A DNA stretch of 64,000 nucleotides from NCBI GenBank assembly GCA_017427285.1, contig JAFRTE010000046.1, forward strand, positions 7,401 to 71,400, given 5' to 3'. This DNA is from Clostridia bacterium (GTDB taxonomy: Bacteria > Bacillota > Clostridia > Oscillospirales > UBA644). Shown here in pieces: positions 3,065-55,078 of this stretch (position 1 is the first letter of the stretch; each line of letters starts with the position of its first letter). The notes beneath the pieces were generated by a model, which was not told the DNA's origin, searched no databases, and worked only from the letters and a program-made list of their open reading frames with translations. Both the position numbers and the translations under genes were made by a program.

Positions 3065-3093
3065 TTGACAAATAACCGTTGTTTTGTTATAAT
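3065..3093 (+). promoter_or_regulatory. sigma-A type promoter of paralog P2
   Basis: TTGACA (3065-3070), 17-nt spacer, TGtTATAAT (TATAAT at 3088-3093). It lies inside the track ORF that starts at 3079, so that start is rejected. Confidence 0.75.
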
Positions 3094-3129
3094 TTAATCA
3101 AAATACAAATTGAAGCGGGGGATATTGCA

Positions 3130-4509
3130 ATGAAACTGTTTGTAAGAGTATCTGTTATTATTCTTGCGGCATTTTTGGTTTTGTGTTCGTGCGGTCGGGA
3201 GGGTGATGAAATTATCCCGGAATTCGACGCCGCAGCAGGGGATCCACTCAATTATAACGGAATGGAAATAACCTTTCTCAGCGATACGCCGCTTTATTTC
3301 CGTTATGAAGATTACACCCCGTCTTACGACGCGATCACGAAGAGGATAAAAGAGGTCGAAAAGAAATATAACTGCAAAATAACGTATAATTCAACCGGTT
3401 CGCTCGAACTTCTCGTCACGTCCGCCGCCGCAAGCGGAGATAAGCTATGCGACGCCATTTTTATGGACGGTAAGCCGTTTCGAAATCTTTCAGTCGCCGG
3501 ATATCTTCTCGATTTTGCCGCGTATTCCGATATTATAGATATAAACGACTCTTTCAGATGGGGTACGAAAAACGTGCTTGAGATCTGTTCGGCAAACGGC
3601 CGTCTTTACGGCGTAACTCCAGCCGCATGGGTTGATAAGCTCGCGCCTTACTATTTTCTTGTTGTTACAAATAACGATATCGTTATGAGAAACGGATTTT
3701 CCCATCCGCACGAATATTATGAAAACGGATCGTGGAACAGAGACGTTTTTGCCGAAATGGTAAGCACTTGCGCCGATCTTGAAAAAAATATCTACGGCAT
3801 AGATACGTCAAACGCGTTTATCGGCCGTATGGCGGTTTATTCGGACGGTATCGGGCTTGTTGACGATTCTTCCGAAACGCCGCGTTCAACATGGCACAGC
3901 TCAATTGTTCAGGACGATTTGCAGTGGGCTGCCGATTTCATAGCGGCAAACGGCGATTATATTACTCAAAACGGCGAAAGCTACGATAAATTCATTGAAG
4001 GCAGCGCCGCGATGGCTCTTCCCGCAATTCACCATTTTTGCAGAAAAATCATTTATACAACAGCCATGGAAAGCTATTCTTTAATGCCGTTTCCGTGCAG
4101 CGACGCCGTTGAAGCGGGCACCTGCGGCGGCTTTTTCTCAACGGGTCTCGATACGATCTCTCTACCCGCGTTTACAACAAACGAAAGAGAGACCGCAACC
4201 GTAATAAACGATATCTTCGCTCCGATGGACGGCATAGATACCGCAGACGCTCTTGATTCATACTATATTTCCAATGTTTTCTTCAGCTCCACCGACCTGG
4301 AAATATATCAGAAATGCATGTCGAACACAAGATACAATTATTGGGTCGAAGGAGCTTTCACGCCCCTTGAAAATATAATAAACAACGTAATAAGCGGCAA
4401 ATATACTCCGTCCCAGGCAATAGACGCATATATAGAGACCGCGGACGAATACATAATAAACGTTATCGTCCCGAACGAGGAGGGGCTTAAAGAGTACTTC
4501 GCAAACTGA
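3130..4509 (+). CDS. SBP-like lipoprotein paralog P2 (divergent subfamily)
   Basis: ATG at 3130 follows GCGGGGGA. Signal peptide MKLFVRVSVIILAAFLVLCSCGRE, then EIIPEF. Shares YGVTPAAW, HPHEYYENGSWNRDVF and LMPFPC with the family. Confidence 0.8.
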   Translation: MKLFVRVSVIILAAFLVLCSCGREGDEIIPEFDAAAGDPLNYNGMEITFLSDTPLYFRYEDYTPSYDAITKRIKEVEKKYNCKITYNSTGSLELLVTSAAASGDKLCDAIFMDGKPFRNLSVAGYLLDFAAYSDIIDINDSFRWGTKNVLEICSANGRLYGVTPAAWVDKLAPYYFLVVTNNDIVMRNGFSHPHEYYENGSWNRDVFAEMVSTCADLEKNIYGIDTSNAFIGRMAVYSDGIGLVDDSSETPRSTWHSSIVQDDLQWAADFIAANGDYITQNGESYDKFIEGSAAMALPAIHHFCRKIIYTTAMESYSLMPFPCSDAVEAGTCGGFFSTGLDTISLPAFTTNERETATVINDIFAPMDGIDTADALDSYYISNVFFSSTDLEIYQKCMSNTRYNYWVEGAFTPLENIINNVISGKYTPSQAIDAYIETADEYIINVIVPNEEGLKEYFAN

Positions 4510-5362: not shown

Positions 5363-5391
5363 TTGACAAACCGTTATGGATTATGTATAAT
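5363..5391 (+). promoter_or_regulatory. sigma-A type promoter of paralog P3
   Basis: TTGACA (5363-5368), 17-nt spacer, TATAAT (5386-5391). It overlaps the track ORF start at 5383, which is therefore rejected. Confidence 0.75.
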
Positions 5392-5421
5392 ATGGAAAAT
5401 TTATTCAAAAAGGAGCGAAAC

Positions 5422-6810
5422 ATGAAATATTTCAAGCTGACGGCTGTAACCCTGTTATTTGCGGTTCTTTTAATATCGTGCGGAGTTTCCTCCGAGATCG
5501 TTCCGGAATACGATGTAACGTCCGACACTACGGATTTTTACGGGACAACATTCAACTGGGGTTTCTCTATGCACCGCTATGCAAGCAGCACCGATAATGT
5601 TTTCGGATATAAGCCGGATACCAATTTTGCAGATATGGCTCTTGAAAGGCTGAAAGATGTCGAGAAAAGATTCAACTGCACTATTAATATCGACAATAAT
5701 TCAAGTTCATATGTAATCGGCGACAGGCTCAATGTTTCGCTGAAAACAGGCGTTCACCTGTATGATATCGCAACCTGTGACACAGGTATTCTGTCATCAA
5801 TTGTCAGAGCAGGCGGCTATCTCGCAGGTCTTTCAAATTTGCTTGATGTTAAGAATACCGCAAAATTCGGAAGACCTAACATGCTTCAGATGATGCTCTG
5901 GAAAGACGATCTTTATGGCGTTGTTCCCTGCGCATGGCCGCTGCTTGTTTCTTCAAGAATAGGACATGTTCTTGCGATCAATGAAACCCTGGTTGCCAGA
6001 CTGGGAGAGACCGACCCCAGAGAATATGTTGAAAATTCTACATGGACCTGGGATAAATTTGAAGAGGTCCTCGAGGCTTTCACATATAAAGAAGGTGAAA
6101 GAACAGTCTATGGACTGAGCAGCCATGATGCTTATTTCGCCATGAACATGTTCCTTTCCAACGGCGTAACTTTTTCGGAATACGTAGACGGAAAAGTCGT
6201 TTTCGGCGCATATACGGACGCGGGAAGAGAAGCACTTGAGCGCGCTGCGTCTATATACAATGTCACCTGCAAGCCCTTTATCTATCCCGACGCCAGCACC
6301 ACAGACCATTTCAGGGACGGCTCGTCGGTAATGTGCGGCTACTTTTTAGACGGAGTCATAAACACGCTCATGTATGAAATGGAAAACGCAGGCATAATTC
6401 CTTTCCCCCAGGGACCGAAGGCGACCCCCGGCGTATATCCCACATATTATGAGGAATTCACTTATGCTACCGTAATACCCGCCAACGCAATCGACACAAG
6501 CGCTTCCGCAGCAATCATAGACGCAATGTTTGAGCCGTTTAAAGGATTGGAAACCAGGGACGATATGATTGATTATTTAACATCTCAGGTGTTCTTTGAT
6601 CCCAGAGACTCGGCGGTATTTCTCGGAGCAGTCGAATATACCGAGTACGGATTTTTCTGGGAAGGCGGACGCAGCGGCATAGAGCAATGCATAAGAACAT
6701 TAAAACCCGTTTCCGAAGCCCTTGAAGGACTTGAAAATGTTTACGATAAACTTGTTGAGGAATATCTGGTTCCTCATTACAACGGAAGGATTGCTGTTTA
6801 CGGTGAATAA
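5422..6810 (+). CDS. SBP-like lipoprotein paralog P3 (same subfamily as P1)
   Basis: ATG at 5422 follows AAAAAGGAGCG. Signal peptide MKYFKLTAVTLLFAVLLISCG, then EIVPEY. Collinear with P1 along its whole length, with identical blocks such as LWKDDLYGVVP, TWTWDKFEEVL, AYFAMNMFLSNGV and TEYGFFWEGGR. Confidence 0.85.
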   Translation: MKYFKLTAVTLLFAVLLISCGVSSEIVPEYDVTSDTTDFYGTTFNWGFSMHRYASSTDNVFGYKPDTNFADMALERLKDVEKRFNCTINIDNNSSSYVIGDRLNVSLKTGVHLYDIATCDTGILSSIVRAGGYLAGLSNLLDVKNTAKFGRPNMLQMMLWKDDLYGVVPCAWPLLVSSRIGHVLAINETLVARLGETDPREYVENSTWTWDKFEEVLEAFTYKEGERTVYGLSSHDAYFAMNMFLSNGVTFSEYVDGKVVFGAYTDAGREALERAASIYNVTCKPFIYPDASTTDHFRDGSSVMCGYFLDGVINTLMYEMENAGIIPFPQGPKATPGVYPTYYEEFTYATVIPANAIDTSASAAIIDAMFEPFKGLETRDDMIDYLTSQVFFDPRDSAVFLGAVEYTEYGFFWEGGRSGIEQCIRTLKPVSEALEGLENVYDKLVEEYLVPHYNGRIAVYGE

Positions 6811-7611: not shown

Positions 7612-8937
7612 ATGGAAAACAGCAGAGAGCTGCTCAGGTTCTTTGACGAGAATCAGTCGTTTATGGATGAGCAGATAAAAACAGGTATCGAAGCGAACCG
7701 CAAGAGCGGCGCGGTGTTTATTTTCCGTGACGAACAGGGAAACCCTCTGACCGACGTGCACGCCGAGATTCATCAGCAAAAACACGATTTCAGGTTCGGG
7801 GCGAATATATTCATGCTTGATGAGCTTGAGACTGATGAAAAGAACGGGCAGTATAAGAATGCTTTTGCAGAGCTGTTCAATCAGGCAACCCTTCCGTTCT
7901 TCTGGTCGGATCTTGAACCCGTTCAGGGACAGCCCAGGTATGCAAAAAACTCCCCGAGGATATACCGCAGGCCGTCTACTGATCTGTGCGTAGAGTTTTG
8001 CGAGAAAAACGGTATCGAACCGAAAATGCACTGTCTGAACTACGGAATGTGGACGCCTCTCTGGGTCCCTCAGGATGTTCAGGGCACGAAAAGATGCCTT
8101 GAAAAGCATATGGCCGAACTCGGCGAAAGGTATGCGGACAGAATACCCGCGATTGAAGTAACAAACGAGACTCTTCATGTTGAAAACTGGGATCAGACCA
8201 CCGGTCTGAACACACTCTTCTTCCGTGAACCCGATTATGTGGAGTGGAGCTTTGAACACGCGAGAAAATATTTTCCCTGCAACGAGCTTATTATCAACGA
8301 AGCGCCTCTTATGTGGGCTGACGGTTTCAAATACAACCGCAGCGCTTACTATATGCTTATAGAACGCGCTCTGTCCAAAGGCGCGCCGATCGACACTATA
8401 GGTATGCAGTTTCAGGCGGGCGGTAATCCTCCTGCAAAACTGTTTGATCCTGTCAAAATCTATCAGGTGCTTGATCAGTATGCTAAACTCGGTAAAGCGA
8501 TACAGATTTCCGAGGTAACTATTCCTATGATTACGCATGATGAGGAGGGCGCGGAACTTCAGGCGGAGCTGATCGGGAAGCTTTACAGACTCTGGTTCAG
8601 TCATCCGGCTATGAGCTCTATCATATACTGGAATGTCGCCGACGGCTATGCGCACGGTGCAAAACCCGGAGATATGGAGGTCGCGGAAAACAGATACCGC
8701 GGCGGACTTCTGAATTTTGACATGTCTCCCAAACCCGCGTATAAAGTACTTAAAAAACTTATACACGAGACATGGAAAACCGATCTTTCGCTGGACAGCG
8801 GAAGCGACAGCAGAATATTTATGAGAGGATTTCACGGAGAGTATTCCGTAACGGCATTTTCAGGCGGAAAGACCGCAAAAACCTCGATACATCTGACCAA
8901 AGGCGCGGCAAACCGGTTTGAAATAACACTGCGATAA
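7612..8937 (+). CDS. glycoside hydrolase family 10-like protein (xylanase-like), cytoplasmic
   Basis: ATG at 7612 follows AAGAGGAG. FRFGANIF, LPFFWSDLEP, AIEVTNE (acid/base-like) and IQISEVTI (nucleophile-like) fit the GH10 pattern. No signal peptide. Confidence 0.6.
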   Translation: MENSRELLRFFDENQSFMDEQIKTGIEANRKSGAVFIFRDEQGNPLTDVHAEIHQQKHDFRFGANIFMLDELETDEKNGQYKNAFAELFNQATLPFFWSDLEPVQGQPRYAKNSPRIYRRPSTDLCVEFCEKNGIEPKMHCLNYGMWTPLWVPQDVQGTKRCLEKHMAELGERYADRIPAIEVTNETLHVENWDQTTGLNTLFFREPDYVEWSFEHARKYFPCNELIINEAPLMWADGFKYNRSAYYMLIERALSKGAPIDTIGMQFQAGGNPPAKLFDPVKIYQVLDQYAKLGKAIQISEVTIPMITHDEEGAELQAELIGKLYRLWFSHPAMSSIIYWNVADGYAHGAKPGDMEVAENRYRGGLLNFDMSPKPAYKVLKKLIHETWKTDLSLDSGSDSRIFMRGFHGEYSVTAFSGGKTAKTSIHLTKGAANRFEITLR

Positions 8938-26930: not shown

Positions 26931-28319
26931 ATGCCTAAGCTTATCAGAATTTTTGCTTTACTGTTCGTTCTTGTTTTCGTGTTTTCATCGTGTCAGTCCG
27001 AAACGTCCGAAGTTGTGCCCGAATACGGGTTTGACACGCAGGAGGGCGACCTCGGCGGATATACCGCTGTTTTCGGCTGGTCCGGCACCGCGGGCGAGTC
27101 TGTCCTCGGCTTCGTTGCCGATACCGCAAACGCCGATATTGCGATGTGGCGCGTTAAAGACGTTGAAAATTCGCTTAACTGCAAAATAGATATTCATTAT
27201 GACCCCGACAACATAATCGGCATGCTGCGCGCAGGCGTAATGTCGGGCGTTCAGCCGTTTGACATTATGGAGGGTGACGGCTATCATCTCGTTTCCGACG
27301 TCCGCGCGGGCTATCTTGTTGGGCTTAAAGACCTTCTTGATATACAGAATACCGATAAATGGGGCACGCCCAACATGCTGCAGTCTATGCTTTGGAATGA
27401 TGACGTATACGGCGTTGTTCCGTTTGCATGGCCCGAACTCGTTTTCAGAACACCCGGTCATCTTCTCGCCGTCAATGAAAACATTATAGCATCCCTTGCG
27501 CAGCCCGACCCGCGCGAATTTGTTGAAAACAATACCTGGACGTGGGATCTTTTTGAAGAAAAGCTTGAAGAGTATACATACGATGCCGGCGGATACACCG
27601 TTTACGCGCTCAGATGTCATCTGCCGTATTATTCGATCAATTTCTTCCTGTCAAGCGGCGTCGCGCTCTCAACGATCGAGCTCGGGCAAGTCGTCTGCGG
27701 CCTTTATACCGATATCGGAAGAGAAGCGATGCAGCGCGCGCAGGAAACATACCAGGTCACTCACAGACACTGCTTCCACCCGCAGACCGACTCTACCGGT
27801 CACGACGAGTTTATAGGCGGAGAAGCGGTCATGTATCTCACATGGACGTACGAGCTTACGAGCGATACTACGTATATCATGTATAATATGGATAACGTAG
27901 GCGTTCTCCCGTTCCCGCAGGGTCCTCACGCAACTCCGGGCAAATATCTTTCTTATCATGAAGGACTTGCCTTTGCAACCGGCATTCCCGCCAACGCCGC
28001 AGACCCTGAAGCTTCCGCGGCGATCCTTTCCGCGCTTTACGAACCGTTTGACGAGTATAAAACGAAAGACGACATTATAGAATATATGACAAAGCAGGTC
28101 TTCCACGACAGACGCGATACCGAAGTTATTCTCGCATCCGTCCGCGATACCGAATACGGCTTCTTTAAGGAAGGCGCGCGCAAAGCGCTCGAAAACGTTT
28201 TCAATACTCACGATTCCATACAGCAGATCCTCGATTCTCTCGACGACGCTTACGACAAAATCGTTGAAGAATATATGATGCCTCACTATCAGGCGCGTCT
28301 TGCCGTTTACGGCGAATAA
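26931..28319 (+). CDS. SBP-like lipoprotein paralog P4 (P1/P3/P7 subfamily)
   Basis: Signal peptide MPKLIRIFALLFVLVFVFSSCQS, then EVVPEY. YGVVPFAWPELVF, DPREFVENNTWTWDLFEE, GVLPFPQGPHATPGKY, TEYGFFKEGAR, C-terminal AVYGE. Confidence 0.85.
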   Translation: MPKLIRIFALLFVLVFVFSSCQSETSEVVPEYGFDTQEGDLGGYTAVFGWSGTAGESVLGFVADTANADIAMWRVKDVENSLNCKIDIHYDPDNIIGMLRAGVMSGVQPFDIMEGDGYHLVSDVRAGYLVGLKDLLDIQNTDKWGTPNMLQSMLWNDDVYGVVPFAWPELVFRTPGHLLAVNENIIASLAQPDPREFVENNTWTWDLFEEKLEEYTYDAGGYTVYALRCHLPYYSINFFLSSGVALSTIELGQVVCGLYTDIGREAMQRAQETYQVTHRHCFHPQTDSTGHDEFIGGEAVMYLTWTYELTSDTTYIMYNMDNVGVLPFPQGPHATPGKYLSYHEGLAFATGIPANAADPEASAAILSALYEPFDEYKTKDDIIEYMTKQVFHDRRDTEVILASVRDTEYGFFKEGARKALENVFNTHDSIQQILDSLDDAYDKIVEEYMMPHYQARLAVYGE

Positions 28320-28342
28320 AAAATATAAATACAATGAAAAAA

Positions 28343-28366
28343 AGCTCCGATTCGCTCGGAGCTTTT
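28343..28366 (+). terminator. terminator after P4
   Basis: Stem AGCTCCGA / TCGGAGCT, loop TTCGC, followed by TTTT. Confidence 0.75.
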
Positions 28367-28537
28367 CAGCATTTAATAGAAAGGAGTAAAAAACATGAAA
28401 AAATCTATAAATGAAAGAAGTAATCTTGATTTGTGACTGAATTATAACCTAAAAACTCCGATTCGTCAACCCCTCTTGAAGTAAGTTGCATTTTTAAGGG
28501 GGTAAGTTGCAAAAAAATGAGGTAAAATACAAAAATC

Positions 28538-28562
28538 GCCTGTCCGAATTTGTCGGACAGGC
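28538..28562 (-). terminator. terminator after the repeat-protein gene
   Basis: 10-bp stem GCCTGTCCGA / TCGGACAGGC, loop ATTTG, with T-runs on both strands. Confidence 0.75.
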
Positions 28563-28580
28563 AAAAATTTTTGCTTAATC

Positions 28581-29378
28581 TTAATGTCCTCGCTTGTCAA
28601 GAAGGGCAATCGCTTTGTCAAGAAAAGCTTTCCACAGCGTTTTGACCGGCTTGTTATTACCGAAAAGCGCAACGAGCTTCGGGCTTACCGCATAATAGAT
28701 CTTAATAAACGCTTTTCCCAAAATATGCTTTTTCAGAAAACCGTCGCGAAACCGTCTCAGCGTCATGACCGGCGCGCAGTCATACGAACCGTAAACGCAT
28801 GTGGCTATATAGCACCCTTCGGAGCTGTTGTTTGTATTGTTCTCGGAATTATCCGCAGAAACGGTTTTGCTCGTCGCGGCGTTATGGTTTAGCTCGTATG
28901 CCCGCTCGATAAGCTGCGATTTTTTTTCCGTTTCCTTTTCACCTGCACCGCAGCGGGTATTTCCTCCGTATAGATCGGGCGTTGACGAATCTGTTTTGCT
29001 GCTTTCTCTTCCGTAAGAGGTATATCCGTCAAAGAAAACCGGAGAGCTGCTATCGTTTTTGCCTTGCTCACCGTAGTGAGTATAGCCTCCGAATATACCG
29101 GGGGTCGTCGAACCGGTTTTTCTTCCGTCTTTGTCGTAATTGATATACTCGCCGAAAAAGCCCGGGGAACTGCTTCCCGTTTTCTTTCCGCTTGCGTCGT
29201 AGTGCGTATACCCTCCGAAAAAACCGGGGCTTGACGAACCTGTTTTTTTGCCGTTTTTGTCGTAAGTGGTATATCCTCCGAAAATGCCGGGTGAGCTGTA
29301 TCCCGTTTTCTTTCCGTTTTCGTCGTAATGCGTATTTCCGCCGAAAATATTCGGTTCGCTGCGTCCTTTTTTCGCCAT
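28581..29378 (-). CDS. YD-like tandem-repeat protein with a Cys-rich C-terminal CYIATCVYGSYDC...LRRFRD domain
   Basis: 265 aa with no signal peptide. About 6.5 copies of a 21-aa unit (xFGGYTHYDxxGKKTGSSSPG). C-terminal GCYIATCVYGSYDCAPVMTLRRFRDGFL...YYAVSPKL resembles the widespread CFIATAAYGS...LRxFRD type domain. SD TAGGAGCA. The start is 33 nt after the P5 stop. Confidence 0.75.
   Translation of the reverse strand: MAKKGRSEPNIFGGNTHYDENGKKTGYSSPGIFGGYTTYDKNGKKTGSSSPGFFGGYTHYDASGKKTGSSSPGFFGEYINYDKDGRKTGSTTPGIFGGYTHYGEQGKNDSSSPVFFDGYTSYGRESSKTDSSTPDLYGGNTRCGAGEKETEKKSQLIERAYELNHNAATSKTVSADNSENNTNNSSEGCYIATCVYGSYDCAPVMTLRRFRDGFLKKHILGKAFIKIYYAVSPKLVALFGNNKPVKTLWKAFLDKAIALLDKRGH
28941..29348 (-). 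repeat. 63-bp (21-codon) coding tandem repeat, about 6.5 copies
   Basis: The repeat units are read directly from the translation (aa 11-146). They degenerate toward the C-terminal side. Confidence 0.85.
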
Positions 29379-29411
29379 TTTATGCTCCTACAGAGTTAAA
29401 ATAGGAAGAAA

Positions 29412-30818
29412 TCAGTTGTTGCCGTCGTTTTTCAGACTTTCAAGTATCTCAACGTTCGGAATAATTTCTTTTATAATCGAATCGTTAACTCTTTCCGCCT
29501 GACTTGAAAGTATTTCAGCGGAGGATTTTCCGTTTGACGTTGCGGTTGTGGCGTTGTTGAAAAAGTCGTATATGCTCGTTACGCTCTGATATGCCCAGCG
29601 CGTATTTTTGTAGTAATTCATTATCATGTCTATATCGCGCTCGTCAAAGAATATGTCGGACATATACTCTTTCAGGTCGTCTTCCGTTTCATATCCCCTG
29701 AAAGGATCGCAAAGACGGTCTATAACGGTAGCCGCGCAAACCTCTTCCATCGTATTGTAAAGTATCATAAACGCGATGTTTTCATGGTATGCGTTCGCCC
29801 ATTCACCGTAAGTGCCTTTCGGACCGCACGGCATGGGAACAACGCCGAAATTGTCAAGCTTATAGCTCATAAACCTTATGATATGGTCTACCGCGGTCTT
29901 GGACATTACGAGTTCGTCGTTGAGCATCTTCGCAAGCATCGTATCGTGCCCGTCAAACGTGATATAATCCTTGTTTTCGGTGAAAAGCTTTGCGCACCAG
30001 TCAAGCGTTTCGGCAACTTCGGGCGAATCTATTGCGGGAAGGATTGTTCCGTCGTCCTGGATCGTGTAATACTGCAATCCGTTCATAAACGCGAATTCCA
30101 TTATGCCCCAGGTAATATTGAGAGCGGTCGCCTTAACGGAGCCGTCATCTATCTGATAATCGGGAATAATTCTTTCAAAAGTGTCCCACGTCCATTCGCC
30201 GTTTTCAACGTAGTCTCGCGGGTCTGTCTTTCCGTAGCGCGCCACGAGATTTTCATTTACAACAAATACGCCGTAAGACGTAACTATCTGTTTGCCCGGC
30301 CATCTTGTGGGCGAAACGCTGTAAACTTCGCCTTTGTATATACCCGGTTCAAGCAGACCGTATCCGCCGTATTTCTCCTCGTCGGTATAGTCAATGTAAT
30401 CCTGCACGGCGTCGAGCGGGAAACAGAAACCGGCTCGGACAAACGACTGCTGACCGGACGTAAACAGAATATCCGCAACAAACGAGCCGCTCGCCAGCAC
30501 GGGAACAATACTGTCAAGGCGTATCGTGCCGTCCGTTTTAACGGTTATTTTACAGTTGACATCCTTTTCTATTTCTTTTATCCTTTCAAGAAGCATATCC
30601 TCCATAAGCGTGCCCGAAGGATATGAAAAAAGGCTTGTCGGGGATGTTTCAGCCATGTGATTCTGCATTATCGTGCATTCAAATCCGCCGAAATCCGTTT
30701 TGCTTCCGCCCATACCCGCGTTGAAATCTTCAAGAAATTCTTCTTTCGCTGTCTGCGAGCACGAACACATTGCAAAAATCATCAGTACGACCAGCAATAA
30801 AGATAATGTCCTTTTCAT
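29412..30818 (-). CDS. SBP-like lipoprotein paralog P5 (P5/P6 subfamily)
   Basis: ATG at 30818 is 7 nt after GGAGG; the track start at 30833 is a TTG. MKRTLSLLLVVLMIFAMCSCSQ. WPGKQ, DPRDYVENGEWTWDTFE, FGVVPMPCGPKGTYGEW, RWAYQ. Confidence 0.85.
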   Translation of the reverse strand: MKRTLSLLLVVLMIFAMCSCSQTAKEEFLEDFNAGMGGSKTDFGGFECTIMQNHMAETSPTSLFSYPSGTLMEDMLLERIKEIEKDVNCKITVKTDGTIRLDSIVPVLASGSFVADILFTSGQQSFVRAGFCFPLDAVQDYIDYTDEEKYGGYGLLEPGIYKGEVYSVSPTRWPGKQIVTSYGVFVVNENLVARYGKTDPRDYVENGEWTWDTFERIIPDYQIDDGSVKATALNITWGIMEFAFMNGLQYYTIQDDGTILPAIDSPEVAETLDWCAKLFTENKDYITFDGHDTMLAKMLNDELVMSKTAVDHIIRFMSYKLDNFGVVPMPCGPKGTYGEWANAYHENIAFMILYNTMEEVCAATVIDRLCDPFRGYETEDDLKEYMSDIFFDERDIDMIMNYYKNTRWAYQSVTSIYDFFNNATTATSNGKSSAEILSSQAERVNDSIIKEIIPNVEILESLKNDGNN

Positions 30819-30857
30819 TTTCAACCTCCGCAATTATCAATAATGTAAGTTTATGTT

Positions 30858-32240
30858 TCAGTCTTTTTTCTCTTCTTCATAAAGCTGCAGAATTGTTTCC
30901 GCATTAGGTTTTACATACTGCTTTACGCGTTCGTTTACGGCGTCCGCAAATCTGTCAACGATCTCCGCGCCCGTTTTTCCTCTTTTTGCCCAGTCGGTGG
31001 CGCTCGAAAAATAATCCCATATCCCAAGCGTATAGTAATTCCACCTTGAATATTTCATAAACGTGGTAAACAGCTCAACGTCACGGCGATCGTAAAATAT
31101 TGTTGACGCATAGTTTTGCAATTCGTCAGGAGTTTCATAGCCCTCAAACGGCTCGAATATTCTGTCGATGATCACGGCGGCGGCTTCGGGTTTCTTTGCG
31201 TTTACCCATATTGCCATACTGTCGGCTCCCGAATAAGCGTTGACCCATTCTCCGTATGTGCCGTTTGGACCGCACGGAAACGGAATTGCGCCGTAATTGT
31301 CAACGTCGTATATCATTTCGTTTATCATATGCGAAAAAGAGGTCTGCGCAAGAGTTATATTTCCGTTGATAAATCCCGCGACCATATCGTAGTGCCCGAG
31401 ATAACTGATTATATCCGCATGGTTTGCAAGCAGCTTTGAACACCAGTCAAAAGCGTCGATCACATTTTGCGAGTCAAGAGACGGAGCAACATTTCCGTCG
31501 TCTGAAACGGAGATATAGTCAACTCCGTTCATCATAACAAAATCAAGGATCGTCCACGTTAAATTCATCGCGGTCGACGTATATTCGCCGTCAACGACCT
31601 GATAATCGGGCAAAGCTTTTTCAAAAGTCTCCCACGTCCATTCGCCGCGCTCAACGTATTCTCGGGGATCGGTAAGCCCGTATTTTGAAACGGTGTCTTC
31701 GTTTACCGCAAAAATATTGTATGCGTAAAGCTTTTGTTTTCCGGGCCACGAAACGGGCGATACCGTATACGGTATTCCGTCGAACATTCCCTGCTCAAGT
31801 ATGCCGGGGCTTCCGAATTTTTCCGCATTAGTATAGTCGAGATAATCTTTCAGCACGTCAAGAGGGTAGTAAAGGCCGTCTTTTGCGGGATTGTGAGGCG
31901 AGTGGGAGCATGCGATTTCACCTACGTAAAGGTTTGAGGCGATTCTTGCGGTCTCGTTTCCCTGTATCGTCTGTACGGTTATATCGCAGTTATATTCGTT
32001 CGATATATCTTTAAGTCTCTGAAGATACATATCACCCATAAGCGTTCCGACGGGATACTGAAACGGATGGTCTATGTCGTAATCCTGAACGATCGGACAT
32101 TCGTATCCGTTAAGATCGGTTACTTCGGAACTCTGCAACGTATCAAATTCCAAAAGAAACTCTTCCTGCTCTTTCTGCGCGCATGAACATACGGCTAAAA
32201 GGGCAATAATCAATATAATTACCGACGTCAGCTTTTTCAT
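30858..32240 (-). CDS. SBP-like lipoprotein paralog P6 (P5/P6 subfamily)
   Basis: MKKLTSVIILIIALLAVCSCAQ. WPGKQ, DPREYVERGEWTWETFE, YGAIPFPCGPNGTYGEW. TTGACA-N17-TATATT promoter upstream on the minus strand. 39 nt upstream of P5. Confidence 0.85.
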   Translation of the reverse strand: MKKLTSVIILIIALLAVCSCAQKEQEEFLLEFDTLQSSEVTDLNGYECPIVQDYDIDHPFQYPVGTLMGDMYLQRLKDISNEYNCDITVQTIQGNETARIASNLYVGEIACSHSPHNPAKDGLYYPLDVLKDYLDYTNAEKFGSPGILEQGMFDGIPYTVSPVSWPGKQKLYAYNIFAVNEDTVSKYGLTDPREYVERGEWTWETFEKALPDYQVVDGEYTSTAMNLTWTILDFVMMNGVDYISVSDDGNVAPSLDSQNVIDAFDWCSKLLANHADIISYLGHYDMVAGFINGNITLAQTSFSHMINEMIYDVDNYGAIPFPCGPNGTYGEWVNAYSGADSMAIWVNAKKPEAAAVIIDRIFEPFEGYETPDELQNYASTIFYDRRDVELFTTFMKYSRWNYYTLGIWDYFSSATDWAKRGKTGAEIVDRFADAVNERVKQYVKPNAETILQLYEEEKKD

Positions 32241-32390
32241 TTCTTACTGCCTCCCGTTTATTTCGCTTTATATATTAAAATATATCATATTTTTCATATT
32301 ATGTCAACCACAAAATGATATTTAAGGTTGACTTTTTGCTGCGAAAAGAGTATAATACAACGGGAAATAATTAAAAAGGAGATCGATTTT

Positions 32391-33788: not shown

Positions 33789-35177
33789 TCAGTCTCCGTA
33801 AACCGCGTCCATTGCGCGGTAACAGGGCATCATGTATTCCTCAACGATCGTTTCGTATTTGCTGAGGTTGGATTCAAGCACCGTTGATACCGGCGTTTGC
33901 GTATTTCCTATACCTTCGAGCACGCCGCGCGCGCCTTCGTCAAAGAAGCCGTATTCGGTATTTGTAACTTCGTTTACAACTATCTCGGCGTCTCTTCTGT
34001 CAAAGAATATCTGAGTTGCCATGTAGTCTATTATATCGTCCTTCGTTTTGTATGCTTCAAAAGGTTCGCACATTTCCGAAAGAATAAGCGCGGAGGCGAT
34101 CGGGTCTCTTGCGTTTACGGGAATACCGAAACAAAGCAGCAATCCTTCGTTATATGAGAGATATTTGCCCGGAGTTGCTTTCGGACCCTGCGGGAAGGGA
34201 AGAACGCCTACGTTATCCATATTATACATGATCCATCTGGTGCTTCCCGTAAGCTCGTTCATCCATGTAAGATACATAACGCATTCGCCGTTTACAAATT
34301 CGTCGTCGCCTACGGAGTCTGTATACGGATGGAAATAGTCATGGCTTGTTTCATAATACATCTTCTGGCAGCGTTCCATCGCTTCTCTTCCGGCTTCGGT
34401 GTATACGCCGGCAACAACTTCGCCGTTCTGATACGTCGAAACGGCAACGCCGTTTGAAAGCAGACAGTCTATTGCGTAATATGGCAGATGTACTCTTACG
34501 CCGTATACCGTTCTTTCGCCTTCGGTAAACGTATACGCCTGAATAACTTCTTCAAATTTATCCCACGTCCACTGACCGTTTTCAACAAATTCACGCGGAT
34601 CGGTCTGCGCGAGTCTTACAACGAGGTTTTCGTTAACGGCAAGGATATGGCCTGAAAGTCTGTAAACAAGGTCGGGCCATGCAAAGGGAACTACGCCGAA
34701 AAGGTCGTCATTCCAAAGCATCGGAAGAAGCATGTTCGGTGTGCCCCATTTGTCAGTGTTTTTTACATCGAGGAGCGACGAAAGTCCCATCAGGTTTCTT
34801 GCACGGGCATCGTTGCGAAGCGCACCGCCTCCCGAAACTATGTCATAATCCTGAAAACCCGCAAGTATGCCTGAACGGAAATTGTCCATCATATTCGAAG
34901 ACTGTGCATGTTCGATTTTGCAGTTGAGCTTCTGCTCTACTTCTCTTCTTCGTTCAAGTACCATGTCAGCAAGCTGAGTGTCGGGAATAAATCCGAATAC
35001 GGAGCTTCCCTCAGTGCCGCCCCAGCCCCATACCAGCTTGAATCCGTCAAGGTCGGTATCCGAGACGCCTTCTTCGAAATTGTATTCGGGAATTGTTTCG
35101 GCAAGTTCTCCGCCGCATGCGGTAAGGACTAAAACCGAAATCAGCAGCATGCATAAAATCTTGATACAGGTTTTCAT
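33789..35177 (-). CDS. SBP-like lipoprotein paralog P7 (P1/P3/P4 subfamily)
   Basis: ATG at 35177 follows GCGAGGAG. MKTCIKILCMLLISVLVLTACGG, then TIPEY. FGVVPFAWPDLVY, DPREFVENGQWTWDKFEE, GVLPFPQGPKATPGKY, TEYGFFDEGAR, C-terminal AVYGD. Promoter TTGACA (35278-35273), N17, TAAAAT (35255-35250). Confidence 0.85.
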   Translation of the reverse strand: MKTCIKILCMLLISVLVLTACGGELAETIPEYNFEEGVSDTDLDGFKLVWGWGGTEGSSVFGFIPDTQLADMVLERRREVEQKLNCKIEHAQSSNMMDNFRSGILAGFQDYDIVSGGGALRNDARARNLMGLSSLLDVKNTDKWGTPNMLLPMLWNDDLFGVVPFAWPDLVYRLSGHILAVNENLVVRLAQTDPREFVENGQWTWDKFEEVIQAYTFTEGERTVYGVRVHLPYYAIDCLLSNGVAVSTYQNGEVVAGVYTEAGREAMERCQKMYYETSHDYFHPYTDSVGDDEFVNGECVMYLTWMNELTGSTRWIMYNMDNVGVLPFPQGPKATPGKYLSYNEGLLLCFGIPVNARDPIASALILSEMCEPFEAYKTKDDIIDYMATQIFFDRRDAEIVVNEVTNTEYGFFDEGARGVLEGIGNTQTPVSTVLESNLSKYETIVEEYMMPCYRAMDAVYGD

Positions 35178-35374
35178 GAAAATCTCCTCGCTTTTTTTAT
35201 ATCGGATGTAATAACTGTTCTGCTGTATATGTATACAGATACTTTCCATATTTTACTATATATTTCGCGATATGTCAATAGGAAAATTCATTTTTTGTGA
35301 ATATTATTGACATTTTATCAAATCAGGTGTAAAATAGTACATAATAATCAAATGAATCGGAGAGAAAAAACAAT

Positions 35375-39254: not shown

Positions 39255-40658
39255 TCAGTTTTCAAACGTGCCCCAGACGGCTTCAGAGCCGCGAATGGCA
39301 GGCATTACATATTTATCGAATATCTCCGCAGCAGATTCTCTGTTGCTTTCGATGTAACTGCTTATCGATCCGTTGTAGGTGATAAATTCCTTGTATTTAG
39401 AGCCGATATTGCAGTTGTTGAAAAGATTGTCCCACGAAAGATACAATTTGTAGAAATTGTCGCAGTCACGCTCGTCAAAGAAATAATAGCGCGACATATG
39501 CTCTTTTATCTTTTCAAACGTTTCAAATCCCGTAAGTGGCTCGTAAAGCTTATCAAGTACGGTTGCCGTTGCTTCCGCATCGTGGGTAAGTACGGGGATA
39601 GTAATGCAGTTTCCGTAACCGGAAAATACCGAACAGGCAGAGCCCGGTTCGGCGTTCGGGCCGGTGGGATATATAAGCAGGGCGTAATTATTCAAACATT
39701 TCGATATATAAAAGTCTTCTTTTCCGAAAATGTATGGAGTACAGCACATTCCCGCCTCGCCTGCGTCGAATTTTTCAACGGTAGGAACAGGCAATGCGGT
39801 ATAAACCGCATAGGAAAGACTGCCTTTTAATATATCTCTTGCCTCTTCCATCGCGGCCGCCGCGGAATCGGAAGAAAAGCCGAAAACAAATTCTCCGTTT
39901 GCGTCTCTTCCAACCATACGGTCGCCGTTTGATCTTACAAACATTTCAACGTATGCGCTGTCGGTTGTTGAAAATCCGTAGATTTTCACTTCGCCGCTTT
40001 CGATTACGGTATAGTCTTCTATACATTTGCGAAACTGCGCCCAGGTCCATGCGTCAGTTTCAACGTATTCGCGCGGATCGGGCAGCGCAAGCTGAGAAAC
40101 TATATCCTCGTTTACAACGAGAGGATATCCGAACTGCGACTGCGTAAGCAGGGGCCATGATATGGGAAAAACGCCGTAAACGTCGTCCTCGTAGCATAAT
40201 GCGAAAAGATGCTTTCTGTTTCCCCATTTCTCGCTGTCGTTGTAATCGATTATCCCTCCCAGCGATTTTATTCCGGTAAGGACTCCCGCACGGATCGCTT
40301 CCGTCGCCGAATTTGTGTTTCCGCACAGGATATCGCATAAAAACGTACCGGCATAGGAAGAGGCGATAATTTCCCCGAAGCCGTATCCGCCGTAAACGAT
40401 ATCCAGCTTGCAGTTGAGCTCTTTTTCCGTTCGGTTTACGGCTTCTTTTGCAAGATCGGCAAATTCCGTGCCGATCTCGTAACCGAGAACGGTTTCGTCC
40501 GAATATGCCGTTGCATATACTACCGTTTTTCCGCCGAGATCGGTGCCTACAGAAGAAAATGCGTTGAAATCCATGTCAAAAACCTCAACGGGCGCCGAAC
40601 ATGAGCATACGGAGAGCATAATCGCGGCAATAGTCAGTAATTCTACGATCTTTTTCAT
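39255..40658 (-). CDS. SBP-like lipoprotein paralog P8 (divergent)
   Basis: MKKIVELLTIAAIMLSVCSCSA. YGVFPISWPLL, DPREYVETDAWTWAQF, LLIYPTGPNAEPG. 47 nt downstream of P9. Confidence 0.8.
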   Translation of the reverse strand: MKKIVELLTIAAIMLSVCSCSAPVEVFDMDFNAFSSVGTDLGGKTVVYATAYSDETVLGYEIGTEFADLAKEAVNRTEKELNCKLDIVYGGYGFGEIIASSYAGTFLCDILCGNTNSATEAIRAGVLTGIKSLGGIIDYNDSEKWGNRKHLFALCYEDDVYGVFPISWPLLTQSQFGYPLVVNEDIVSQLALPDPREYVETDAWTWAQFRKCIEDYTVIESGEVKIYGFSTTDSAYVEMFVRSNGDRMVGRDANGEFVFGFSSDSAAAAMEEARDILKGSLSYAVYTALPVPTVEKFDAGEAGMCCTPYIFGKEDFYISKCLNNYALLIYPTGPNAEPGSACSVFSGYGNCITIPVLTHDAEATATVLDKLYEPLTGFETFEKIKEHMSRYYFFDERDCDNFYKLYLSWDNLFNNCNIGSKYKEFITYNGSISSYIESNRESAAEIFDKYVMPAIRGSEAVWGTFEN

Positions 40659-40705: not shown

Positions 40706-42124
40706 TCAGCCGAAAATCTCCTCCGCAGTAGTTTCCATATTAACAACGTATTTTACTCTGTTCTGTTCGTCTGCATCCGCATATGCGTCAAGAGCTTCCC
40801 TCATCGTTCTGCTGCTGTTCATATTGATGTAAACGTCCGTACATGCTTCGTGTCTGTAATTGTAAAGTACGGTTTTATACATATCCACAAAGTTGTAAAC
40901 GTCTCTGTCGTCAAAGAAATACTGCTTTCTCAGATAATCGATAATATCTTCTTCATTTTCATATCCGGGGAGCGGTTCGTATATCGCGTTGAGCAATACT
41001 GCGGACATAGCGGGGTCTTTTGCGCAAAGAGACGGGATTGCTGTTGAAAATCTCGTTGTTGTTATCGTCGAGCCGGTGTTTGCAACGCTTCCGTTAGGAC
41101 CGTGCGGGAACGGAACTACGCCGAAATTATCCATGTTGAATACTATCGAGTTGTCTGTTCCGCAAAGGTCTGTGCCGTTCATCAGGGTGAGGACCGATTT
41201 TCCGTCAAGAAATGCCTGCAGCATATTCGTCCAGTTATTGTTCAGGTCGATATTGACGTATGTGGAATACTCGCCGAAAGTCCAGTTCCATGCAGTCTGC
41301 ATAGCTTCAAACGTGATGGGGGAGTGGAGACTGAGCTGGAACTCGCCCTTGTCGTCTTTAATAATAACGGGTTCGCCGTTTGTTGTATGCATCGTTCTGA
41401 AAAGCCAGTGGATAGTTGTCTGAAGCGCCTTTACCTCGTCGCCTGCATCGTTTATATGATTGTATATGGGCATAAGCTCTTCAAGTTTGCTCCACGTCCA
41501 CTCGTCGCGCTCAACAAACTCTCTCGGGTCTGTCTGGCTCAGACGGCTGATGATCGTTTCGTTAACAACCATTGCTCCGTCGATCGAACGGTATTTCAGC
41601 AATGGCCATGCGGCCGGAATAACGCCGAAAAGACCTCCGTCCCAGCACAGCGGTTTAAGGTCTTCCTTCGTTCCCCATTTATCCGCTTTTGTATAATCGA
41701 TAATATCACCGAGATAAGTAAAGTCGTATAAATATCCCGCTCTTGCAAGATTTGCTATCGTGCTTGATTCAGACTGAGCGGCATCGTAAAGAATAAGTCC
41801 GGCGATAGAAGAGGACGTTATCAGGTCGGAAAGTCCCTGTCCCGAAGTGTTGAGTTTTATAACAACATTGTAAGTATCCTCAACGTCCTTCAGACGTCTT
41901 GAGGCAAGATCGGCAAATTCGGTGTTTACTACGTAACCGAAGTATTCTTCGCCCGTTGAATGCTCCTCGTTTCTCTGAACAAAAACGAACTCCGCGCCGC
42001 GGTAGTCGATACCCGTGATCTCCGTTGAATAATCGGGTATTATTTCCTGCTCCGCCTGCTGTCCGCACGAACAGAGAGCAAAAACGATAAAGAATACAAT
42101 AGCCATGGAAATAATCTTTTTCAT
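40706..42124 (-). CDS. SBP-like lipoprotein paralog P9 (divergent)
   Basis: MKKIISMAIVFFIVFALCSCGQ, then EIIPDY. FGVIPAAWPLL, DPREFVERDEWTWSKLEE, FGVVPFPHGPNGS. TTGACA-N17-TATAAT promoter upstream on the minus strand. Confidence 0.8.
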   Translation of the reverse strand: MKKIISMAIVFFIVFALCSCGQQAEQEIIPDYSTEITGIDYRGAEFVFVQRNEEHSTGEEYFGYVVNTEFADLASRRLKDVEDTYNVVIKLNTSGQGLSDLITSSSIAGLILYDAAQSESSTIANLARAGYLYDFTYLGDIIDYTKADKWGTKEDLKPLCWDGGLFGVIPAAWPLLKYRSIDGAMVVNETIISRLSQTDPREFVERDEWTWSKLEELMPIYNHINDAGDEVKALQTTIHWLFRTMHTTNGEPVIIKDDKGEFQLSLHSPITFEAMQTAWNWTFGEYSTYVNIDLNNNWTNMLQAFLDGKSVLTLMNGTDLCGTDNSIVFNMDNFGVVPFPHGPNGSVANTGSTITTTRFSTAIPSLCAKDPAMSAVLLNAIYEPLPGYENEEDIIDYLRKQYFFDDRDVYNFVDMYKTVLYNYRHEACTDVYINMNSSRTMREALDAYADADEQNRVKYVVNMETTAEEIFG

Positions 42125-51942: not shown

Positions 51943-53757
51943 ATGAGGATATCGGATCTTACCGCATACGCTGCGGAAAAATACCGTATTGAAGAAATTC
52001 ACAAATGGTCCGACTTCCCGGGCTTTTCCGTGCTCTGCCATCCCGAAACCGGTAAATGGGTTGCGCTTCTGATGCGCCAGTGGAACTCAGATCTCGGCGA
52101 AGAGATCGAACGCTGCGATATAAAATGCGGTCACGGCGTTCCTATGCGCCCGTATATCACGTCTCCTTTTCGCATGCAGGGCGACAGATGGCAGGGTATC
52201 GCTTTTAACGACGAGACCGAAGAAACCGTAGTTTTTTCTCTTCTGGACAGAGCAATTTCAGAGGGTTCTCCGAGCGGTTACAAAATTGTGCTTGCATCTC
52301 AGCTTCCCGTAAAGGATAACGCATACAGGGAAACACCGCTACCGTTTTCTTCGGGGACAAATCGGTCCGCTCAGACGAGAGCTCCCGAGCGCATTCGCGA
52401 AATGCGCCGACTTTATGAATACGGCAGAGAGTCCGTTGAGTCAAGAGCTGAGAATTTTTACAATCAGGCGGTCTTCATGCGCGATTATGAAGACGATTAT
52501 CCGTGGTCAGGAGATTTTGTCTGCTATTTCCCAACTTATCACGACCTTACCACAAATCAGCTCCGCGGTTATTTTTCATGGCGCAAAAATATAAGAAAAG
52601 GCGATTTTAAGCCGATCTCCGCCTCTGCTGCTTATATTTATATATACGAGCTTTTAAACGGTGTCGGTGCAGATTCTCCGACAGACGCGATAGATAAGCT
52701 GAAAGCGTTTGACGAGGGATTTATAGGCGCTGGTTTCGGCAACGACAGAATGCGGCAAAATATCCGCCGCTGGATGTTTGAGCTTGCAATAATAAAAGCT
52801 TTGCCTATCGATTTTACCGCAAAAACAGCCGATCCGGAAGTTCAGAAAAGAGATATTTCTCTTTCCGTACTTAAAACACCCGAAGAGTTTTCCGATAACG
52901 AAATATTTGACGCTCTCTGCATCCTTTCCGGTAAAAAAACGTGGGATTCTCCCGTCATAAAAGCCGATTCCGCCCGCGGAATGCGCCTGTTTGCCGAGGC
53001 GTGGAAGGCGATCCGTTCATACAGGCGCGAAGATAAGCCATTTTTTCAGCTCTGTTTCGGCAAAAAAGTCTCACGTCGCTGGCATCCTCTCGCAAATGCC
53101 GTTTATTATACCGGCAAAATGTCGTCAGACGCCGATTATCTTCTTAATCCCTGCCGAAATTACCGTTGCCGTAACGGTATATGGACCGTGACCGCATACG
53201 ACAAACAGTTTTTTAACCTTGAGCTTCTGCGCGCCTTTATCAGACTGACGGACGCTCTTTTGCGCCGATATCTGAAAACGGGAAAGTATCTGAAAGAAAA
53301 TCCCGAAGACGAGTGGGCAGCTCCGTTTATTCTTGCCGTTATCGAAGCCGATAAAAATGCGGCTGCCGAAGCGTCAAAACCGAAGATCACGATAGATCTT
53401 TCAGAACTTGACAAAATACGGGCCGATTCCGATATTACAAGAGACAGTCTTTTGACGGAGGATGAAACGGACGATTTCGAAGAACTCCCCGAACCTCTTA
53501 GGGAGGTTGAAAAGACGGATATCCCTCTTGACGAAACACAGATAAAACTTATTCGTTTGCTGCTTTCGGGCGGCGACGTCTCGGGATTGCTTAAATCAGC
53601 GCACCTTATGCCGTCCGTTGCGGCAGATTCGATCAACGAGGCCCTTTTTGACGATATAGGAGATACGGTTTTGCTGTGTGAAAACGGTATTCTCGCATTG
53701 GTTGACGATTATATAGACGATTTAGAGCGTTTGCTCGGAGGAAACAGTAATGGATGA
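51943..53757 (+). CDS. sngA: TerB-N / TerB-C domain protein with an N-terminal YjbR/MmcQ-like module (Shango SngA-like)
   Basis: Middle region FVCYFPTYHDLTTNQLRGYFSWRKNIRKGDFKPISASAAYIYIYELLNGVG gives the TerB-N signature. C-terminal LDETQIKLIRLLLSG...SINEALFDDIGDTVL is TerB-C-like. The first roughly 110 aa resemble YjbR-type proteins. SD AAAGGGGA. Confidence 0.75.
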   Translation: MRISDLTAYAAEKYRIEEIHKWSDFPGFSVLCHPETGKWVALLMRQWNSDLGEEIERCDIKCGHGVPMRPYITSPFRMQGDRWQGIAFNDETEETVVFSLLDRAISEGSPSGYKIVLASQLPVKDNAYRETPLPFSSGTNRSAQTRAPERIREMRRLYEYGRESVESRAENFYNQAVFMRDYEDDYPWSGDFVCYFPTYHDLTTNQLRGYFSWRKNIRKGDFKPISASAAYIYIYELLNGVGADSPTDAIDKLKAFDEGFIGAGFGNDRMRQNIRRWMFELAIIKALPIDFTAKTADPEVQKRDISLSVLKTPEEFSDNEIFDALCILSGKKTWDSPVIKADSARGMRLFAEAWKAIRSYRREDKPFFQLCFGKKVSRRWHPLANAVYYTGKMSSDADYLLNPCRNYRCRNGIWTVTAYDKQFFNLELLRAFIRLTDALLRRYLKTGKYLKENPEDEWAAPFILAVIEADKNAAAEASKPKITIDLSELDKIRADSDITRDSLLTEDETDDFEELPEPLREVEKTDIPLDETQIKLIRLLLSGGDVSGLLKSAHLMPSVAADSINEALFDDIGDTVLLCENGILALVDDYIDDLERLLGGNSNG

Positions 53758-55078
53758 GCCAAAAAAAGCGCCTAAACGCATTGCGCAAACGGTGATCAAT
53801 TCCTTAAAAGGCGGCGTTGTTCCCAGAATAGGGCTGCCGTATATTACGGTCGGACGCAAAAGCGAAATCGAGGCGCTGCTTCACGACGTCGAAATAATTT
53901 CTGAAGGCGGCGCGTCTTTCCGATTCATTGTCGGACGTTACGGAAGCGGAAAAAGTTTCCTTTTGCAGACTATCCGCAACTACGTTATGGACCGCGGCTT
54001 TATCGTTGCGGACGCCGATCTTTCTCCCGAAAGACGTTTGCAGGGCACAAAAGGACAGGGGCTTGCAACGTACCGTGAGCTTATTTCCAATCTTTCAACG
54101 AAGACAAAGCCCGAGGGAGGCGCGCTGACTCTTGTTTTAGACCGCTGGATAAGCGCTGTTCAGACCGAAGCGGTCGTTGAAACGGGGCTTTCGCCAGACA
54201 GTCCGGCTCTTGCTGAAGCGACAGACAAAAAAATTTTTGCCGTTACAGCGTCTGTCAGCGAGCTTGTTCACGGTTTTGAGTTTGCAAAGCTGCTTTCCGC
54301 ATATTACAGGGCATATATCAACGGCGACGACGAAACAAAGGCGAACGTCGTTAAGTGGTTCCGCGGCGAATATGCTCTTAGAAGCGAAGCGAAAGAGGCG
54401 CTCGGCGTAAATATCATTATTACTGACGACGATTGGTACGACTATCTCAAACTGTTTGCTGCGTTTTTCCGTCTTGCGGGATATACAGGTATGTTTATTA
54501 TGATAGACGAACTTGTAAATATCTATAAAATCCCCAATTCCGTCACAAGACAGTATAATTACGAAAAACTGCTTACCATGTATAACGACACTTTGCAGGG
54601 GAAGGCAAAATATCTCGGCATTCTTATGGGCTCAACCCCTCAGTCGCTCGAAGACAAACGCCGCGGTATTTACAGCTACGAAGCGCTCCGCTCTCGACTT
54701 GCGGAAGGACGTTTTTCCAAACCCGGGTCCCGCGATCTGCTCGCGCCGGTAATACGTCTCGAACCTCTTACGGCGGAGGAAATGCTCGTTCTTTGCGAAA
54801 AACTATCCGAAATGCATGCGGATTTATATGCTTATAAACGTTCGGTCACGACCGATGACCTCGTCGGCTTTATCAAGATCGAGTATTCCCGCATAGGCGC
54901 AGATAGCAACATTACCCCGCGCGAGGTTATAAGAGATTTTATAGAACTTCTTGATTTGCTTTATCAGCATACCGAAATGAGCATTTCGTCGCTCCTTGAA
55001 TCGGACGAATTCAGTTATGCTAAATCCGAAGCCGTTTCGGACGATGCCGATGCGGGGTATGTGGAGTTTACCGTATGA
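53750..55078 (+). CDS. sngB: P-loop ATPase of the DUF2791 / BrxD-like type (Shango SngB-like)
   Basis: Walker A VGRYGSGKSF, Walker B MFIMIDELV. N-terminal VVPRIGLPYITVGRKSEIEAL is typical of DUF2791. The start overlaps the upstream stop by 8 nt (ATGGATGA). Confidence 0.75.
   Translation: MDEPKKAPKRIAQTVINSLKGGVVPRIGLPYITVGRKSEIEALLHDVEIISEGGASFRFIVGRYGSGKSFLLQTIRNYVMDRGFIVADADLSPERRLQGTKGQGLATYRELISNLSTKTKPEGGALTLVLDRWISAVQTEAVVETGLSPDSPALAEATDKKIFAVTASVSELVHGFEFAKLLSAYYRAYINGDDETKANVVKWFRGEYALRSEAKEALGVNIIITDDDWYDYLKLFAAFFRLAGYTGMFIMIDELVNIYKIPNSVTRQYNYEKLLTMYNDTLQGKAKYLGILMGSTPQSLEDKRRGIYSYEALRSRLAEGRFSKPGSRDLLAPVIRLEPLTAEEMLVLCEKLSEMHADLYAYKRSVTTDDLVGFIKIEYSRIGADSNITPREVIRDFIELLDLLYQHTEMSISSLLESDEFSYAKSEAVSDDADAGYVEFTV

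Follow-up and report, generated by a model that had tools for sequence, protein, structure and literature searches.

RHS/YD proteins are built from dozens of repeat units with the core Y-x-Y-D-x-x-G-K, a period of about 21 amino acids (aa) and a beta-hairpin fold, and they have a plug, an aspartyl-protease, a toxin C-terminus and a secretion signal. Proteins named CFI-box-CTERM are covered by the NCBIfam model NF041770, which is a domain-of-unknown-function model only, and carry the signature C-[FY]-I-A-T ... L-R-x-F-R-D in a C-terminal domain. Solute-binding proteins (SBPs) of the AbnE, SBP_bac_1 and SBP_bac_8 type are lipoproteins of about 460 aa. Features of all three groups were found in adjacent minus-strand genes of a 64,000-nucleotide (nt) stretch of a Clostridia bacterium genome (GenBank assembly GCA_017427285.1, contig JAFRTE010000046.1, positions 7,401 to 71,400), referred to here as the window. 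Genes P6 and P5 encode SBP-like lipoproteins, and the gene that follows, REP, encodes a 265-aa protein with YD-like repeats and a CFI-box domain. P6-P5-REP is probably a lineage-specific tricistronic unit that arose when an indel put a stand-alone REP gene after P5 and ahead of the P5 terminator, and REP and the lipoproteins probably share no conserved functional link.

All elements of the unit lie on the minus strand. A sigma-70-type promoter (TTGACA-17-TATATT, 11/12 matches, TG upstream of the -10 box) was located at 32307->32279. It precedes P6 (30858-32240), which was recognized as a 460-aa lipoprotein and a divergent carbohydrate-type SBP paralogue from its open reading frame (ORF), lipobox and family profile. 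A 39-nt spacer (30819-30857), which contains the P5 Shine-Dalgarno sequence GGAGG, leads to P5 (29412-30818, ATG at 30818), a 468-aa SBP-like lipoprotein identified by ORF and lipobox. After a further 33 nt (29379-29411), with AGGAG 8 nt before the ATG, comes REP (28581-29378). The intrinsic terminator at 28564->28536 has a 12-bp stem (7 G-C pairs) followed by a T-run. The other minus-strand terminator candidates between promoter and terminator had only 5-6-bp stems within coding sequence, and the only promoter-like match in the 39-nt spacer was weak (9/12). A preliminary description of the window had placed the promoter before P6 at about 32275-32303 and the sole convincing terminator, as a 10-bp hairpin, at 28538-28562. 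Both were recovered at the positions given above, and its 39-nt and 33-nt gaps and separate Shine-Dalgarno sequence for REP were confirmed.

The -35 box and the TGnTATATT of the promoter were invariant in the sister P6 loci L098 and L099, where the flanks had diverged. The P5 orthologues in loci L096 and L100 had long upstream regions of their own, which had only the Shine-Dalgarno region in common with the window. Transcription of P6, P5 and REP as one unit is plausible because of the 39- and 33-nt gaps, the absence of an intervening terminator, the conserved promoter footprint and the single P5-derived terminator. Its transcription would start at the P6 promoter and end at a terminator that originally belonged to P5. 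Among the features by which operons are judged, the unit shows co-directional genes, short gaps, one promoter and one terminator, and it lacks a gene order conserved across species.

The boundaries of the indel were found by comparison with L096, in which REP is absent. The window and L096 are homologous as far as the vicinity of the P5 stop codon. Homology returns at the terminator hairpin and extends over about 360 nt with 78% identity. In the gap, L096 holds about 100 unrelated nt where the window has the Shine-Dalgarno sequence and REP. REP is an indel of about 850 bp that separates the stop codon of P5 from the terminator of P5, and the upstream edge of the indel is in the 29379-29411 spacer. 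The terminator directly follows P5 in L096, and the two hairpins (window 28536-28564, L096 7506-7530) are homologous. For this reason the terminator is taken to be ancestral to P5, and REP to lie inside what is elsewhere the P5 3' untranslated region (UTR). The hairpins differ by a compensatory T:A to G:C stem change (GCCTGTCCG/CGGACAGGC vs GCCTTTCCG/CGGAAAGGC), which is consistent with selection keeping the terminator hairpin. The possibility that the terminator arrived as part of the REP insert was rejected on the basis of the same homology. The most likely course of events is that a normally stand-alone REP came in after the stop codon of P5 and ahead of its terminator.

The order P6-P5-REP was seen only in strains of the window species. 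The P5-REP-terminator junction was also present in the near relative L005, where REP has a canonical length of 183 aa. Loci L007-L009 encode the 265-aa REP identically as a called gene. An exact-sequence look-up listed the 265-aa protein as absent despite these loci, which reflects an index inconsistency and not biology. In strain L012, P5 is split into ORFs of 318 and 152 aa at 8360-8413. This split consists of 10 N and duplicated sequence and is a scaffolding artefact. P5 as a pseudogene in L012, with REP kept independently, was rejected on this ground; there were no other mismatches to L013.

Synteny was examined from both sides. On the REP side the sample was the best 80 of 518 genome hits, from other Clostridia species (1.18 Mb, median locus 16.6 kb). 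With tblastn and the nine SBP-like paralogues of the window as queries, no P5/P6-type gene was found within ±10 kb at 79 of the 80 loci, and the sole match was weak and about 6 kb from the REP-family gene. A hidden Markov model (HMM) of the nine paralogues had no match among 1080 ORFs neighboring REP-family genes. Clustering gave no conserved neighbor of REP-family genes. The commonest families were a vWA-like protein (9/71 loci; the label is a reading of the sequence), a 271-aa SWIM-like protein (7/71) and a macro-domain-like protein (6/71), and their recurrence probably reflects shared ancestry within Acutalibacteraceae.

On the lipoprotein side, a REP homologue was absent from all 50 metagenome loci retrieved with P5 and P6. 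Five loci held clear P5/P6 orthologues (67-84% identity). Each had only one of the two genes and none had REP, so that even the P6-P5 tandem is missing in the sister species. L096 and L097 encode a GNAT acetyltransferase, P5 (82-84% identity) and a convergent orthologue of the paralogue at 26931. L098 encodes a GNAT protein, a small lipoprotein, P6 (83%), a GH20-like gene and the orthologue of 26931. The P6 orthologues in L098 and L099 had 80-83% identity and the P5 orthologue in L100 had 67%; the gene contexts in L099 and L100 were different. The preliminary description had taken the shared transcript to suggest a functional connection, and had named co-occurrence of P5/P6-type paralogues with the repeat protein in related genomes as a check and absent synteny as a result that would speak against it. 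That result was obtained, and the functional connection is not supported, with one weak match among the 80 REP-family loci, none among the 50 P5/P6 loci, and the arrangement confined to the species and L005.

The REP protein has three parts. Residues 1-104 (29067-29378) contain five 21-aa YD-like units beginning at residues 11, 32, 53, 74 and 95, with the consensus F-G-G-Y-T-x-Y-D-x-x-G-K-K-T-G-x-S-x-P and a DNA period of 63 nt by Tandem Repeats Finder. Residues 105-188 (28815-29066) comprise two degenerate units, at 115 and 136, and a low-complexity linker. Residues 189-265 (28584-28814) form the CFI-box-CTERM domain. AlphaFold2, run with 80 homologues, predicted five beta-hairpins (ten strands) for residues 1-103 with a pLDDT of about 90. 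Residues 106-186 were predicted to be disordered (pLDDT below 50) except for a helix at 151-165. The CFI-box domain modeled alone gave a four-helix module (pLDDT 88, pTM 0.71). The full REP model had no match in the PDB at E <= 1e-3, the weak matches being generic beta-hairpin-repeat folds, and the CFI-box model alone had no fold match in PDB or BFVD.

The label YD-like given to the repeats in the preliminary description holds for the family but not for the window protein taken by itself. Pfam RHS_repeat (PF05593) matched 24 of the 80 REP homologues (best E 2.4e-5), and window REP had no match at E <= 1. In a profile search the REP family weakly touched Rhs core structures (E about 0.4). REP shares with RHS/YD proteins the repeat core, the period and the predicted hairpins. 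It differs in having 5-7 units in 265 aa rather than dozens, a helical CFI-box C-terminus, and no plug, aspartyl-protease, toxin C-terminus or secretion signal. A closed Rhs-type shell is impossible with only 5-7 units. REP resembles YD hairpins and is not an Rhs protein.

The CFI-box lies at the extreme C-terminus of REP, where GCYIATCVYGSYDC starts at residue 188 of 265 and LRRFRD follows further on. Model NF041770 scored 72.2 bits (cutoff 40) over residues 189-256, corresponding to model positions 1-68 of 69. C189, Y190, A192 and T193 were invariant across the 80 homologues. REP carries the NF041770 signature and has the domain in the same C-terminal position, and RefSeq gives the CFI-box-CTERM name to plasmid proteins that match the REP C-terminus. 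The REP subfamily adds the N-terminal hairpin array, which defines a Clostridia-specific subfamily outside any Pfam or NCBIfam model. No paper containing "CFI-box" or its motif strings was found in the literature.

The REP family comprised at least 1657 clusters at 90% identity (E <= 1e-3), and 518 stretches were confirmed in species-representative genomes. Nearly all of the 80 best loci were gut or rumen Clostridia metagenome-assembled genomes. Family members are typically 183-225 aa in length. The window copy was the longest seen owing to its insert of degenerate repeats and linker, an 82-aa expansion within residues 105-188 that is specific to the window species and missing from the 183-aa orthologue in L005.

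The CFI-box module was found in Clostridia, Betaproteobacteria and Bacteroidota behind a variety of N-terminal heads. These were short acidic tails, Sel1/TPR-like repeats, a Cys-rich zinc-ribbon-like head, a cold-shock domain and a J-domain-like head; all labels except the annotated cold-shock domain are readings of the sequences (L089, L090, L093, L095, L153 2653-3234, L154 1507-3222 and proteins P0133-P0250). The cold-shock domain, accompanied by a Cys-rich stretch, comes from Burkholderia plasmids, and the J-domain-like head is the N-terminus of a 571-aa Haliscomenobacter protein whose gene has an Hsp70-family gene as its neighbor. None of the CFI-box proteins with other heads had a signal peptide, which supports the preliminary view of REP as cytoplasmic-looking, and REP itself had no hydrophobic N-terminus as read from the sequence. 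The CFI-box is probably a common localization or assembly module across unrelated cytoplasmic proteins. REP is read as an intracellular protein whose predicted sheet of five hairpins, presumably serving as a binding surface, leads into the compact helical CFI-box module. The family is large and uncharacterized, with a confidently predicted yet unmatched fold. No hits were obtained in PHROGs or PADLOC. A phage or defence origin of REP was rejected, since these searches were empty and the one phage-like and ten plasmid records found match the CFI-box part only.

P5 and P6 are 42% identical to each other. They are exact matches to MBQ6053526.1 and MBQ6053527.1, respectively, of a Clostridia bacterium metagenome-assembled genome at NCBI, and one member of the P6 cluster is annotated as extracellular solute-binding protein. 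Lipoboxes were read from the sequence as ...LAVCSC in P6 (MKKLTSVIILIIALLAVCSC, with Cys at residue 20) and ...FAMCSC in P5 (MKRTLSLLLVVLMIFAMCSC). The window contains nine SBP-like lipoprotein paralogues including these two, at 1537-2967, 3079-4509, 5383-6810, 26931-28319, 29412-30818, 30858-32240, 33789-35249, 39255-40658 and 40706-42124. They are 24-57% identical, form three tandem pairs, and share an invariant lipobox Cys.

Individually, P5 and P6 had no Pfam match (E <= 0.01) and no NCBIfam match. SBP_bac_8 was matched by two of the paralogues (E 6e-7): 26931-28319 scored 30 bits (cutoff 27), and 33789-35249 fell short of the cutoff with 23.5 bits. A profile built from all nine paralogues matched the arabino-oligosaccharide-binding protein AbnE (PDB 6rjy, E 1.7e-7) over profile positions 208-345 only. 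The earlier SBP-like label is therefore partly borne out, through the paralogues and the family profile but not through Pfam matches of P5 and P6 themselves. It is a fair label for these orphan binding proteins, which belong to the SBP superfamily as divergent members.

P5, P6 and their paralogues resemble the AbnE, SBP_bac_1 and SBP_bac_8 lipoproteins in size and lipoprotein signal. They differ from carbohydrate SBPs in standing singly or in tandem beside glycoside hydrolases, and no ABC permease or ATPase was found among the window ORFs scanned against Pfam. Their neighbors include GH10, GH20, GH29 and GH36 glycosidases and peptidases. P5 and P6 are surface lipoproteins that most likely capture glycans on behalf of transporters whose genes lie elsewhere. 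The dense clustering of such orphan SBP-like genes beside glycoside hydrolases bears on how rumen and gut Clostridia forage for glycans. The SBP-like locus was highly plastic: in sister species P5 or P6 occurs by itself, or a GH20-like gene has been inserted.

Elsewhere, REP-family genes have a median upstream gap of about 190 nt and hence are mostly stand-alone. A palindrome, AGTCCGTTTTATGGGACA (GTCC-N8-GGAC), lies 63-155 nt upstream of REP-family start codons (loci L018-L074). It sits 11 nt before a -10 box of the TAGAAT/TATAAT type and overlaps a weak -35 box. Of 58 REP-family upstream regions, 14 had the strict pattern, where 0.76 would be expected. A weight matrix found it in 23 of the 58, and these were nearly all of the matrix matches in the 1.18 Mb. 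The matrix had no match in the whole window, and the palindrome was absent upstream of the short CFI-box-only protein gene P0171. A relationship between the operator and the P5 terminator was rejected, as the spacing in the terminator is N9. This conserved operator could lead to the regulator of the REP family. As the palindrome is missing from the window, the REP gene there appears to have lost the usual control module of its family. Because it lies 33 nt downstream of P5 with no terminator behind P5, its expression is most simply explained by read-through from the lipoprotein promoter. REP would have lost its own promoter and operator and would now ride on the lipoprotein transcript.

Transcription of REP alone, from a promoter inside the 3' coding region of P5, would make the operon only apparent. 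This is unlikely, although most family members have a promoter of their own and two promoter-like sites lie in the P5 3' end about 230-250 nt upstream of the REP ATG, at 29647->29620 (TTGACG-16-GATAAT, 10/12) and 29632->29604. The first of these overlies a conserved F-D-x-R-D coding motif and occurs in a better form (TATAAT) in L096, which argues for a by-product of coding. The module of palindrome and -10 box that serves the family is missing, and with no terminator between P5 and REP there would be read-through regardless. A dedicated REP promoter at 29647->29620 was rejected because the same site, in its better form, lies over the coding motif in a locus that has no REP.

REP could also have been recruited after landing to work with P5 and P6, as a lineage-specific coupling in which it serves, for example, as a partner in glycan uptake in the cytoplasm or at the membrane face, or as a carbohydrate-binding hairpin array acting jointly with the lipoproteins. 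Close spacing, with promoter and terminator in common, was kept in all strains seen and in L005, REP is under purifying selection in its place beside P5, and the window copy has its species-specific 82-aa expansion. The hairpin array was also weakly similar to glucan- and choline-binding repeat folds (all E above 1e-3). Recruitment is nevertheless quite improbable given the lack of co-occurrence in both sets of loci (apart from the one weak match in 80), the presence of P5 or P6 without REP in sister species, and the conserved operator that REP-family genes have of their own elsewhere. Moreover, the lipoproteins sit outside the cytoplasm, and REP lacks a signal for export. A broader proposal is that hairpin and CFI-box proteins are an unrecognized, widespread intracellular family of gut and rumen Clostridia and that the capture of REP was an adaptive rewiring of its expression to glycan sensing or uptake. 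This proposal, which if true would imply a real, though recent, functional link, is considered very unlikely. In the light of the comparative data the gene arrangement is ordinary, and REP, which is unusually long, belongs to a family that NCBIfam already lists as a domain of unknown function.

Compared with L005, dN/dS was 0.28 for the REP repeats and 0.09 for the CFI-box. The GC and GC3 contents of REP matched those of the neighboring genes, on which ground a foreign origin by composition was rejected. REP is under purifying selection and looks like a working resident gene, not debris. That it is a decaying, non-functional passenger in the P5 3' UTR is extremely improbable: the degenerate repeats, the disordered low-complexity insert and the strain-level changes (7 non-synonymous, 3 synonymous) would fit such decay, but these counts are too small to be meaningful, the ORF was intact in all strains compared, the Shine-Dalgarno site is strong and both dN/dS values point the other way.

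The reading of the unit as a lineage-specific product of an indel has to be weighed against several points. Co-transcription of P6, P5 and REP was deduced from sequence alone, and the promoter-like site at 29647->29620 could give REP a start of its own. The direction of the indel is not polarized, and L096 could have lost REP. The synteny sample was limited to the best 80 of 518 REP-family hits and five orthologous P5/P6 loci, and missing synteny elsewhere is compatible with a link that evolved recently in the window lineage. Neither of the predicted REP structures, hairpin array or CFI-box, had a significant structural match. Under the indel reading, local turnover of genes would have produced the P6-P5-REP neighborhood within a highly plastic group of clustered SBP-like paralogues. 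Tight spacing and a shared promoter and terminator can arise by mere insertion of a gene into a 3' UTR. The operon-like adjacency at this locus would reflect such turnover and is not to be used for inferring the function of REP or of the lipoproteins.

Two other features of the window were observed. A conserved non-coding element lies on the minus strand at 28330-28511, in the gap that separates the REP terminator from the convergent paralogue at 26931-28319. It contains two direct TGCAACTTAC repeats 21 nt apart (28481-28511), which occur only once in the window and whose geometry resembles that of LytTR-type promoters. These are followed by TTGACG-17-TATAAT (28469->28441) and a U-rich stretch of roughly 100 nt, in which ACUCCUUUC, similar to an anti-Shine-Dalgarno sequence, falls in a predicted loop. 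The element is closed by a strong terminator (28367->28339), and the fold z-score was -3.45. Rfam gave no hits in the window, this element included. The element was kept in L005, L013 and L096, was absent in L098, and is a candidate regulated small RNA.

On the plus strand, three consecutive genes at 51943-57312 encode a TerB_N/TerB_C protein, a BrxC/BrxD-type ATPase (E 1e-168) and a DEAD/Helicase_C protein. This trio looks like a defence-type module.

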